DNA of 63,983 bases, the filler included, from Perkinsus olseni (taxonomy: Eukaryota), in the NCBI GenBank assembly GCA_013115125.1. It is 3 parts of 3 records of this genome, joined end to end, with 100 filler letters (N's around TTAATTAATTAA, not from the genome) between each part and the next. Parts side by side here need not be neighbours in the genome. Positions count along the whole stretch, not along the records: positions 1 to 22,430 come from JABANN010000540.1; 2 more parts are not named here. One strand, 5' to 3'. Positions 5,871 to 9,500 of this stretch are shown here, piece after piece. The first letter of the stretch is position 1, and the number at the start of each line of letters is the position of its first letter. The position numbers were made by a program, and so were the translations under genes. The notes beneath the pieces are model-generated. The model saw nothing but the letters and a program-made list of their open reading frames with translations. It was not told the origin of the DNA and ran no database searches.

Positions 5871-6552
5871 GATGCTTGATACTGGCTATGGCCATTCTCA
5901 ATCGTTTGGTGGAACCCTCATGCAGGTAATTATAGCAGAAACGTGCACTCACCGCGTCAGCTCTTTTCTCCTCCCTTTTCTGCCTTATCAGCTGCCTCGC
6001 CAATAGAATCGATACCACCAAAAACAAGCCGCAATCAACATAAGCGAGCACGGCCGCGTAGGCAGAGTGGTGGGCGAAGACCTCGTCTATCGCGAAGAAA
6101 ACCTCGTCCGCCGTCTCAGCTGCGCTCAGTGTTGGGGTTGATGACATCATCAGGCTGACCGCGTCGAACTACCAACACTGATCATCCTCCGAAAACAGCC
6201 GACCTCCGTGGACGAGCCAGTGAACAGTCCTCATTATTCAACTTCCGAAAGCTCCAAAAGTGGAAAGTTCCTTCTACCTCAGAGGAAGCTATTGAATAGA
6301 CACCATCTTCTTTTACCACTCTCCTGCACTGTACACAGACTCCGTTCGAGCCTCGAGAGACCGCCGGGCTGATGAAGCCCTCAACTCCAACACGAGACTT
6401 TCAGTGAAGTGAAAACATCTTGAGCGCTACTAAAATGGTACAACAACGATGAGCTATACTATAACATTATAACGAGTAGCAAATCTACAAAAAAATCGAC
6501 AACACCATATAAATGACGAGACCCCGGTTCGACTCCCGGATTGGGCACTTTT

Positions 6553-9500
6553 CTAGTAATTATCAAGTATCCAGTTGGTGGCGTCTTCGAGTGTTGGATG
6601 TTTCTTAACCGCCTCTTCAATCTGATCTTCAGGGAATCCGATCGATGCAAGCTCGGCTGATAAAATAGACGTCGCCAAGATTCGAACCCGCGACCTTTCC
6701 CATCACAGACACCCCACCCATCGTATTCTTCCTCTCTTCCTCCTCTTTCTTGATCCGTGCCCTGTCCTCGCCATTGGGTCCCGAGAAGAGATAGTCGAGT
6801 ACCTCTTCGTTATCACCACCTCCTGTTGTCGGCATCGTCTGGCCTGCCATCTCGCCCAGCTCTGCATCCAGATTCGCCACCTGCCGGAAATCGATCCCGC
6901 GCTGAGCCTTCACAGATTCGTCACGCGCCACGAAATTCATGGAGGGAATACTGCGCTGTGTATCAGGGAACACTATCTGAATCGAGCACTACGGCATGGC
7001 CTCTATTACGGCATTGGCTCCTTGCTGAAGGGCATCATTGTCCACTACGGGTGGTGGTGGAGGAGGGGGTGGTAATGGGGGACTACGAGTAGGGGGAGGA
7101 GGGGTAGGGCTCTCCTGTGGCCTGGGCAGACAAGGTTCGCTGTGCTCCTGAGGAACCTAGCGTAAAGAAGGAGGTCATAACAGCACACCATCTTAATCAG
7201 TACATTGCGGTAAGTTCTATGGCCGGACGACACGCTGTTAGGCGGCGGCATCTCCCCCGTGAGAAGGTCGGTCGGGCCATCCACCACCGGGCCTGCGAAG
7301 GGGTTGGTACTTCGGCTGCCCACCCCTCCAGAGGGAGGAGGTGGGGGAGGGGAACTGTGGGGAGGCTCGGCGGGGTAGTCTCGCCGAGGGCCTCCTCGCC
7401 AAGAAGCCGATGCTCCAGCGGAATCCTGATGGTGAAAAATGCGACACGCCGGGATCGAACCTGCGCCTACCCCAGAAGGATGCCTGTTCCCGCCGCCTTT
7501 TCTTCTCCGCCGTTTGTCGTGGTTGGGAGGTGGGGCGCCAGGCCACGCATCATTGAAGTTGTTAGGAGCCGGCCACTCAACGTTATTCACCGGCCCCGGC
7601 CGAGGGGGTGGTTGTGGGTAAGCGCCACTTTTCTGCTGGTAGTCCAAGTTCCCTCCACGCGTCAGGGAGTGCCTGCGACCACTCCCAAGTAGTCCAAAGG
7701 TCCCCGGTTCGATTCTCCCTACAGCTTTTTCTGCAGCGCCTCATTCTGCCCCATCAAAGCCGCAGCCGACGGCGTCGGACTGCCGCCGTACGGCACCCCT
7801 CCCGGCGGAGGCATCGGGGTGAAGACGTTAGACGGGCCGCCATAGCCCGGACCAGCGCCGTGGCCTCCCTTACCACCGAAGCTGCCCTGACGGTTAGGGA
7901 AAGCCCCCGGCGGAGGGGGAGGGGGGCCTCCCATTATCCGTTGGTTCACGTAGTTGGGGGGAGGATAGCCCGACATGAACCCTTGCGGAGGAGGGGAAGG
8001 GCCTTGCATCACCATAGGGGAGTTCGGGCCGTAGCCAGCGAACCTGTAAAAATACCCTAACCAGGGATCGAACCGGGGACCTCCCTGCCTTACACGTTGT
8101 TGCGCATATCCGGTGGTGGTGGTGGTGGTGGTGGTGCTCCCGCGTACAGAGACCCTGCCGGCTGCTGCTGCTGCTGCTGGAGGGCTATGGTTTGACTTTT
8201 CCTCTTCAACTCTCTCAACGCCTTCGCAACCTCCACGAAAACAGGCCGCCGACTCTCCCTCGAATCGATCTGAGAAATGCCCCTCCTGAGAATTGAACCT
8301 CCGCGGGTATCGCATCCTTACACATCTCAATGCTAAATCTGCCAGCTCAGAAGCTATCGCCGGATGCCAGCCGCAGCTCCATTGTATCTACCGACCAATT
8401 TTAATACCAAATCTTCCCAAACTCCCGACGTTCCCACTACCATATTCCACAACTTTTCCTTATTGATTCCCTTATACATTTCCGTGATCGCCTTTGTCCT
8501 CGGGTCTTGCAGCGCTGGCGGCTTGGTCGTGAGGAGCTCTAGCAGGACCATACCAAAGGAGTATCTAAGGTCGATCATGGTCATAAACAGAAATTCGTCG
8601 ATGGGCTTCCTACACCTCCGACTTCTCAGTTACCACGGACGTGGAAATATACAGAGGATCCGCATAACCTGCGAAGAAGTTGCATCAACCTATTCCGTAT
8701 CTTACACGCTTGAAGCTAAGATACCTACCGATTGTCCCAGAGCACATGTCTACTTTCTGACCGTCTCTTCCCTTTGCCGTAGCCAACAACGCCAAACCAA
8801 AGTCGGCCACTTTCGCGTTGCCGCTCTTATCCAGTATGATATTTTGCGACTAAAACGTATCCAAGGTCGACCCGTGCACTTCACACACAACCCTACTGAC
8901 GACCGACATCCACCAACTACAACGGACTTTGGTCCCCTTAGGATTGACCCCAATATCAAACTACCGGACGAAGCAGAGAGTAGAGCCAACGGTAATGATT
9001 GGGGGGCCAACCTAGTTCGCCTCACTCCCTCCTAATAACCACGACGCCCCTCACTACTTTAATATCCCGATGGAAGACCTTGGGAGTAGAATTGTGGAGA
9101 TGACTCAGACCAAGGCAAGCATCAAGAGCCACTGACACCCGCAGGGTCCACGGGAACGTCTTAGCGCTGTTGGGAGCCGACAGACGTGAGCCTGAAGACC
9201 ACCATCATGACGACGACCCAGGTTCGAACCCCGGCAGAGGAGCTTCTCCTCCCCTCTATTACATAGATCGCCTCCTTCCAGAAGTTCATAAATAAGTAAC
9301 CGCTCATTGCCATTCCGAGCGAAGCCCATCAAAATGACCAAGTTGGGATGACGAAATTTCGACAGGACTTCAACCTCCTCTCGGAAGCCCGACTCCTTGG
9401 GAGCTCTTAACACCTGCGTGATGCCAGCATCGACCTAAGATACTCTTCCGCAACCGCTCACCTTTATTGCGACTTCTGTTTGATCTTTTAGTTGACACTT

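Follow-up and report, generated by a model that had tools for sequence, protein, structure and literature searches.

Fragments of tRNA-gene 3′ ends in six short introns of a Perkinsus olseni kinase gene as a possible source of introns

We analysed 63,983 nt of DNA from Perkinsus olseni (assembly GCA_013115125.1; the whole stretch is called the window below, and its positions 1–22,430 come from JABANN010000540.1) and found that a minus-strand protein kinase gene in it carries a unit of about 35 nt with the layout of a tRNA-gene 3′ end, one per intron in six introns of 45–71 nt and once more in the 3′ untranslated region (3′UTR). The six unit-bearing segments are short GT-AG spliceosomal introns. 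This arrangement suggests that stray copies of tRNA genes can create or rebuild introns. The gene model is already present in public annotation; what is new is the content and the possible origin of its introns. The window consists of three contigs joined by linkers (N / TTAATTAATTAA / N) at 22431–22530 and 44925–45024, across which distances are meaningless; the kinase gene and the units of interest lie in the first contig.

The splicing pattern was read from contigs of four public runs (X1, X2, X11, and X19) aligned to positions 5500–10500. Transcript contigs over the kinase gene extend from about 6415–6424 to past 10500, and those of X1, X19, and X2, joined by X11 for some joints, skip 14 segments of the minus-strand gene. 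All 14 read CT..AC on the plus strand, that is GT..AG on the gene strand. In the direction of the gene, each of these and of two neighbouring introns has GTA or GTG at its 5′ end and CAG or TAG at its 3′ end. A preliminary description of this DNA had named six of the segments as introns. For five of them direct exon joints were seen in contigs of X1, X19, and X2 (6656>6718, 7424>7470, 7671>7722, 8269>8322, and 9190>9262), and small allowed shifts place these exactly at 6657–6717, 7426–7470, 7673–7722, 8270–8321, and 9192–9262, with GT..AG ends in each case. Intron 14 (6657–6717) is kept in one X11 contig (6503–6718). The sixth segment, 8044–8093, is supported indirectly: contig pieces of X1, X19, and X2 stop at 8043, and a loose end of X11 at 8043 runs on with the letters from 8094.

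The coding sequence of the kinase gene runs on the minus strand from the start ATG at 10472 to the stop TAG at 6553–6555 (6553–10472) and comprises 15 exons and 14 introns. Its spliced translation of 747 aa, a kinase / Pro-rich / UBA-like product, is identical to the public protein P0122. Pfam reports a protein kinase domain (Pkinase) at residues 61–318 and a UBA_7 match at residues 711–746, the latter with 19.5 bits and thus under the curated cut-off of 27. The gene had earlier been placed at 6517–9262 and its kinase/Pro-rich/UBA frame was said to be restored by removal of six introns. The 3′ end and the introns of that description hold and the frame does close on splicing, but the start codon falls outside the proposed span and removal of six introns is insufficient. 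Eight further introns have to be taken out: intron 13 (6881–7009, 129 nt, joint seen, without a clear unit), intron 12 (7157–7203, 47 nt, joint in all four runs), intron 7 (8388–8440, 53 nt), intron 6 (8565–8613, 49 nt), intron 5 (8669–8728, 60 nt), intron 4 (8850–9057, 208 nt), intron 2 (9414–9461, 48 nt), and intron 1 (9538–10290, 753 nt, joint 9537>10291 in all four runs). All eight are on the minus strand, and the seven other than intron 13 are unit-free. A weak unit-like match at 6868–6911 (10.5 bits, E 0.02, with the held-out model described below) spans the 3′ splice site of intron 13.

Several side observations concern the same gene. Around introns 4, 9, and 11, P0122 differs from P0121 and P0123, two proteins of another isolate; protein sequences cannot tell whether the DNA has an intron there. 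A stretch of 23 residues of P0121 and P0123 (FGIGDNPKGTK...) matches a reading frame within intron 4, which the aligned contigs skip entirely; it represents either an alternative exon or a difference in annotation. An X1 contig of 796 nt is colinear with the genome across most of the 753-nt intron 1 (9509–10283), which could mean that the intron was retained, that the run contains genomic DNA, or that a distinct transcript covers it. In intron 5, the first 41 nt, with one exon base, recur in an X1 contig with different flanks on both sides (loose ends 8688 and 8729), and so at least one intron sequence that is not tRNA-like also recurs elsewhere in the organism. A dynamic-programming gene finder was dropped, since with none of its settings did it find more than 4 of the 16 introns supported by RNA.

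The unit consists of a variable loop, a T arm with the internal promoter element known as the B box, 11 nt leading to a discriminator base, and a run of T. The consensus of 19 aligned units reads AAGGTC; nCnGG; TTCGATC; CCCGC; GGC; A; TTTTT. The variable loop is AAGGTC-like, and TTCGATC stands between a five-base strand of the stem and its opposite strand. The distance from the B box to the discriminator is exactly 11 nt in most units, this segment often ends in GGCA, and the T-run follows directly. The same layout is found in the intact tRNA-Arg gene of the window. The exact B box GGTTCGANYCC occurs 12 times in the window vs. 0.30 expected, a count reached by none of 100 shuffles; with one mismatch allowed the numbers are 25 vs. 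8.2 expected. At the same time, an A-box-like motif was not enriched in the window (4 vs. 5.9 expected, one of the four belonging to the real tRNA), and ARAGORN together with Rfam found one whole tRNA gene (5796–5870) and one partial tRNA match (51785–51841). As the B box is enriched, the A box is not, and only one whole and one partial tRNA accompany them, it is the 3′ part alone that is over-represented. The Rfam tRNA model RF00005 reported no unit up to E 10, either in the whole window or in a 2.9-kb search. The units are not whole tRNAs.

Twelve of the 19 aligned units have an exact B-box core, but the T stem is poorly kept. Of its outer pairs, 49:65 is intact in 10 of the 19 units and broken in 9, 50:64 is intact in 14 and broken in 5, and 51:63 is intact in 8 and broken in 11. 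Pairing at these positions was no better than that of shuffled partners (73.7% vs. 71.4%; 150 of 500 shuffles were as high).

To recover the kinase-gene units independently, a covariance model (R2) was built from 12 units outside the kinase gene and run over 6300–10700 (4.4 kb) with filters off. It recovered all seven units, with E-values from 1e-13 to 9e-5, and returned one unit in each of the six introns, in the orientation claimed earlier for each. The matches were, from the strongest to the weakest, 8046–8088 on the minus strand (36.5 bits, E 1.1e-13), 9207–9249 on the plus strand (28.8 bits, E 2.3e-10), 7433–7475 on the minus strand (28.3 bits, E 3.8e-10), 6660–6702 on the minus strand (25.0 bits, E 1.1e-08), 6512–6554 on the plus strand (22.8 bits, E 9.3e-08), 7692–7737 on the plus strand (17.4 bits, E 1.9e-05), and 8271–8313 on the minus strand (15.9 bits, E 9.2e-05). 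A gap between the scores of trained units (at least 25.5 bits) and of other hits (at most 11.8 bits) had been considered as a sign of selection; it was dropped, because the held-out scores are graded.

Four introns, all on the minus strand, contain a unit in the sense of the gene. In intron 14 (6657–6717, 61 nt, joint 6656>6718) the B box is present as the variant GGTTCGAATCT at 6678–6688. The unit of intron 11 (7426–7470, 45 nt, joint 7424>7470 with the cut shifted by +1), whose start lies 2 nt past the GT, ends in TTTTT and contains an exact B box at 7451–7461; that of intron 9 (8044–8093, 50 nt) likewise has an exact B box, at 8064–8074, and TTTTT. Intron 8 (8270–8321, 52 nt, joint 8269>8322) holds a degenerate unit, the most decayed of those in the kinase gene, in which GGTTCAATTCT at 8289–8299 has two mismatches to the strict B box and is followed by 11 nt ending in GGCA and then by TTTCT. 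In all four of these introns the end of the T-run lies close to the 3′ splice site, 5, 9, 4, and 3 nt before the last intron base of introns 14, 11, 9, and 8, respectively.

The two other unit introns, also of the minus strand, carry the unit in antisense. In intron 10 (7673–7722, 50 nt, joint 7671>7722 with the cut shifted by +1) the donor GTAGGG lies inside the unit, being complementary to its acceptor letters at 7717–7722, while the rest of the acceptor end and the T-run (7723–7730, about 8 nt) are exonic and code for part of ..LQKKL. Intron 3 (9192–9262, 71 nt, joint 9190>9262 with the cut shifted by +1) has an exact B box at 9221–9231 on the plus strand and 20 nt between the donor and the end of the unit. 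The core of this unit is palindromic; its flanks fit the plus strand only (28.8 vs. 4.8 bits for plus vs. minus with the held-out model). The 3′UTR unit (6512–6552, plus strand, antisense to the gene) has its B box at 6526–6536, the discriminator A at 6547, and a T-run at 6549–6552 that adjoins the stop codon. A distance of 5 nt from a unit at 6517–6547 to the stop had been proposed, and it agrees with these positions. Except for the roughly 8 coding nt of the intron 10 unit, the intronic units leave the messenger RNA by splicing and contribute nothing to the protein.

The spacing among the central four units, put at about 220–360 bp in the preliminary description, is likewise borne out by B-box distances of 255, 358, and 225 nt. 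These three values, on which the idea that the units may sit at 1–2 nucleosome linker positions is based, are just sums of exon and intron lengths.

We lean, without great confidence, towards the view that copies of tRNA genes, or of their 3′ fragments, created or rebuilt the six introns. Such copies would have landed in the kinase gene, and the inserted tails would have survived because splicing could remove them. The intron bodies are 5′-truncated copies of tRNA-gene 3′ ends, including the T-run that terminates transcription by RNA polymerase III. In sense orientation this T-run lies just before the 3′ YAG, at the place expected for a pyrimidine tract; in the antisense intron 10 the complement of the acceptor end provides the GTAG of the 5′ splice site. 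We infer insertion as the origin, and the roles of the T-run and of the acceptor complement as splice signals, that of the T-run from its position only.

Three observations favour fragments that make or remake introns: sizes, the long introns, and a copy in X19. The unit introns measure 45, 50, 50, 52, 61, and 71 nt and the short unit-free introns of the gene 47, 48, 49, 53, and 60 nt. Once a unit of about 35–43 nt is subtracted, 2–30 nt are left of a unit intron; this is too little for an intron, and insertion is therefore favoured over a landing in old introns. The three long introns (129, 208, and 753 nt) make up 65% of the intron bases and hold none of the six units, an absence with a chance of about 0.002 by our own calculation under random per-base placement. 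Finally, one X19 contig shares only 7435–7468, the unit of intron 11, in a copy at least 90% alike and with different flanks. On the strand of the unit this contig reads GTGGGT, the unit, TTTTT, and then CTTCTTCAG, and it resembles another short intron. Also on the side of insertion are the T-run ends 3–9 nt from the 3′ intron end in all four sense units (12 nt in the tRNA-Arg intron), the 5′ splice site inside the unit of intron 10, and the splicing, shared geometry, enrichment of the 3′ part, and held-out recovery described above.

A number of results weigh against this view. The six unit introns show no target-site duplications, with boundary repeats of 0–2 nt, and no terminal inverted repeats above 6 nt, so that no insertion signature is visible; in all 16 introns the longest complementary stretch shared by the two terminal 25-nt segments is 3–6 nt. 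The fraction of T before the 3′ splice site is 0.27–0.53 in unit introns vs. 0.20–0.47 in unit-free ones, and pyrimidine content in this region also fails to separate the two groups. As neither T nor pyrimidine is higher in unit introns, a splice-signal role of the T-run is not demonstrated. In introns of 45–61 nt a unit has, moreover, little room to sit elsewhere. The units differ among themselves outside the T-arm core, and no single mobile family is evident within 64 kb. For three of the four runs the RNA origin is only a guess, and contigs say nothing about expression levels.

Comparison with relatives speaks on both sides. It covered 67 metagenome loci (271,123 nt), none of which is a Perkinsus orthologue; the best reaches 63% identity across the kinase domain. 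In favour of gain, the kinase domain is one unbroken match in the closest metagenome relative (L007, 63% identity), and four distant intron-bearing homologues (L035, L060, L061, and L063) align without interruption across the position of intron 3. Against it, their alignments also cross the unit-free introns 4 and 5, and the four seem to share only intron positions 86 and 239. Since unit-free introns (positions 181 and 221) are missing as well, absence from homologues is not specific to unit introns, and on intron age the distant relatives give only a hint. The absence of any exact B box from the 67 related loci, in contrast, counts in favour.

The reading could be taken further. A tRNA-tail introner, an intron-generating element of a class not described before and made of the last approximately 35 nt of a tRNA gene plus the polymerase III terminator, might insert into coding sequence in either orientation, bring its own splice signals (the T-run as pyrimidine tract or the acceptor complement as GTAG donor), and still be spreading, and its intact B boxes could load TFIIIC within polymerase II genes. 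This extension is possible, though we find it doubtful.

A serious rival, in light of the pseudo-tRNA-Asn in the window, is that old introns were colonised: whole tRNA genes would have entered longer introns, deletion would have reduced these to about 50 nt with the part on the splice-site side left, and no intron would have been gained. The intact tRNA-Arg, whose terminator adjoins the 3′ splice site of its 173-nt host intron, looks like a starting point of such erosion, and the pseudo-tRNA-Asn(GTT) at 51785–51841 is decayed at near full length rather than cut to a tail. The lack of visible insertion scars fits too, as do the frequently broken outer T-stem pairs and the grading of the held-out scores from 36.5 down to 10.5 bits, which decay predicts. 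On the other hand, nearly everything but the unit would have to vanish in every unit intron with the unit spared, while the three long introns of the kinase gene are without a clear unit, and the apparent recurrence of a truncated unit with other flanks in X19 is better explained by copying than by independent erosion. We consider this course of events unlikely. Still less probable in our judgement is that selection maintains the B boxes as TFIIIC sites without polymerase III, serving as chromatin or boundary elements and tolerated only in introns and UTRs. Seven units in one 3.9-kb gene, the absence of A boxes from them, the exact core in 12 of 19, and outer T-stem pairs no better than shuffled partners would all suit such sites. 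However, the units were found through the B box, which largely accounts for its good preservation, and held-out scores are graded, with the box at 8289–8299 already degraded; we therefore place little weight on B-box selection. A TFIIIC site would also not need the conserved 11-nt spacing and T-run.

Two further proposals were weighed. The tRNA-like geometry with discriminator and terminator could mark working RNA genes or signals, such as split-tRNA halves, sources of small RNAs resembling tRNA fragments, or structured splicing elements. Yet the T stem is not maintained, the Rfam tRNA model is silent up to E 10 in the 2.9-kb search, 5′ halves are not enriched, and of the six intronic units two lie in antisense. 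Moreover, a promoter with a B box but no A box is unusual for polymerase III. We regard a function of this kind as very improbable. As for chance resemblance in G+C-rich introns, nothing but the shortness of the motif speaks for it, and the 12 exact B boxes where 0.30 are expected (with no shuffle in 100 reaching 12), held-out E-values of 1e-13 to 9e-5, and the lack of any exact B box in 271 kb of related loci leave it a negligible probability.

Other features of the window put these units in context. The neighbouring minus-strand gene, which is membrane-protein-like, has an intron of 173 nt at 5780–5952 (joint 5779>5953 in all four runs) that hosts the intact tRNA-Arg(ACG) gene at 5796–5870 on the minus strand, in sense to its host (ARAGORN; Rfam 61.8 bits). 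In this intron 82 nt precede the tRNA, and the terminator CTTTTG stands at its 3′ end, where just 12 nt separate the T-run from the end of the intron. The pseudo-tRNA-Asn(GTT), on the plus strand, is matched by Rfam with 31.6 bits over model positions 9–63; its anticodon arm and T stem are intact and its acceptor and D arm degraded. It lies about 460 nt past the end of an intronless reading frame of 770 residues without a Pfam match.

Ten further units of the same tRNA-tail kind occur outside the kinase gene, at 2272–2314, 17452–17494, 18958–19000, 19145–19187, 27797–27839, 29964–30006, 35461–35503, 42203–42245, 42359–42401, and 44303–44345. Several of them can be framed by short GT..AG segments shaped like the confirmed introns (for example 18952–19003, 19143–19191, 17460–17505, and 35459–35507); judged by shape only, these are candidate introns. 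A test for open frames flanking the candidates proved powerless, as random positions gave a median of 64 codons for long candidates and at least 50 codons in 19% of cases for short ones. The unit at 29964–30006 ends in TTATTCAG, and a phosphodiesterase gene has its start codon only 3 nt further on.

A dihydroxyacetone kinase gene at 2560–4251 on the plus strand is intronless in an otherwise intron-rich genome. Its product is 97% identical to one P. olseni protein, 92% to two more, 76% to one of P. marinus, and 71% to one of P. chesapeaki; the named best matches outside Perkinsus are bacterial, with 47–50% identity (for example Vibrio, Pseudomonas, and Kosakonia), and the gene may have been transferred from bacteria. 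Just upstream of its start lies a run of ATG triplets (2500–2545, at least 13 Met codons). Long triplet repeats flank contig ends at about 22531–22600 and 44837–44924. Blastocystis, a gut protist, was considered as the source and set aside because protein similarity points to Perkinsus; the motif TGTTTGTT has no occurrence in the window, and its complement has two.

The origin of new spliceosomal introns is a long-standing question, and the sources known are transposon-like introners and, rarely, captured filler DNA. If our favoured reading is true, tRNA-gene tails would be a new source, with the polymerase III terminator reused beside the 3′ splice site, and a link would emerge between the unusually abundant tRNA-gene copies of Perkinsus and the many introns of its genes. 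Should TFIIIC bind the B boxes, polymerase III factors would be present inside polymerase II genes in an alveolate. The literature searched contained no report of tRNA-like sequences in Perkinsus introns or of introns derived from tRNA genes.

Among known systems, introners come closest. According to Farhat et al. (2021, PMC7789003), introner elements, which occur in Micromonas, Aureococcus, dinoflagellates, and Amoebophrya, are introns of a repeated, transposon-like kind, and those of Amoebophrya are defined by inverted repeats of 8–20 nt between the intron ends and by boundary direct repeats of 3–5 nt. The kinase-gene introns are alike in being short spliceosomal introns built of a dispersed repeat, which points to gain by insertion, and Amoebophrya and Perkinsus both belong to the Myzozoa. 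Unlike what that source describes, terminal inverted repeats here do not exceed 6 nt and boundary repeats are 0–2 nt. The splice sites are canonical, and the shared sequence is a tRNA-gene tail that varies between copies: within 64 kb only the core of about 35 nt is shared. One X19 contig has a copy of the intron 11 unit, at least 90% alike, in another intron-like context.

A link between mobile DNA and tRNA genes has been described in the genus. According to Kojima and Jurka (2013, PMC3706591), Dada DNA transposons target tRNA genes in Perkinsus marinus; they are 4.7–11 kb long, code for a DDE transposase, and have the A box as their insertion site, with the target-site duplication TAGCTC. 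The same source gives more than 500 copies of five tRNA types, and tRNA-gene copies are therefore abundant raw material in the genus. Insertion at the A box would leave fragments that begin at the D arm and not near position 44, where the units start. No Dada-like element was seen adjoining the units.

Genes for tRNA nested in protein-coding introns are known, and the tRNA-Arg in the intron at 5780–5952 is an example. The units resemble them as polymerase III gene sequence lying in a polymerase II intron in either orientation. They differ in that they comprise only the 3′ end of about 35 nt, lack the A box and the 5′ half, have mismatched T stems, and take up nearly all of the intron. Short interspersed nuclear elements (SINEs) derived from tRNAs are likewise dispersed short sequences of tRNA ancestry with a B box. 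SINEs keep a 5′ tRNA-related head with A and B boxes, a body, a tail that is A-rich or related to long interspersed nuclear elements, and target duplications. The units, in contrast, comprise just the 3′ tail, closing with the terminator T-run, and have no duplications that we could see. In intron 11 there is no room for a SINE head, because the unit starts 2 nt after the 5′ splice site.

Isolated B boxes without a transcribed polymerase III gene are known as extra TFIIIC (ETC) sites in budding yeast and as chromosome-organising clamp sites in fission yeast. By ARAGORN, Rfam, and the motif count, the units too are B boxes without an adjacent polymerase III gene. They differ from ETC sites in keeping tRNA features needless for TFIIIC and in lying inside introns rather than between genes. 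Introns have also arisen from filler DNA captured at repaired breaks, for instance an intron of mitochondrial-DNA origin. In these, as in the origin we favour, an unrelated cellular sequence turns into an intron after insertion into coding DNA. Filler-DNA introns are single events, however, whereas six introns of one gene are concerned here, along with about 18 units in the window.

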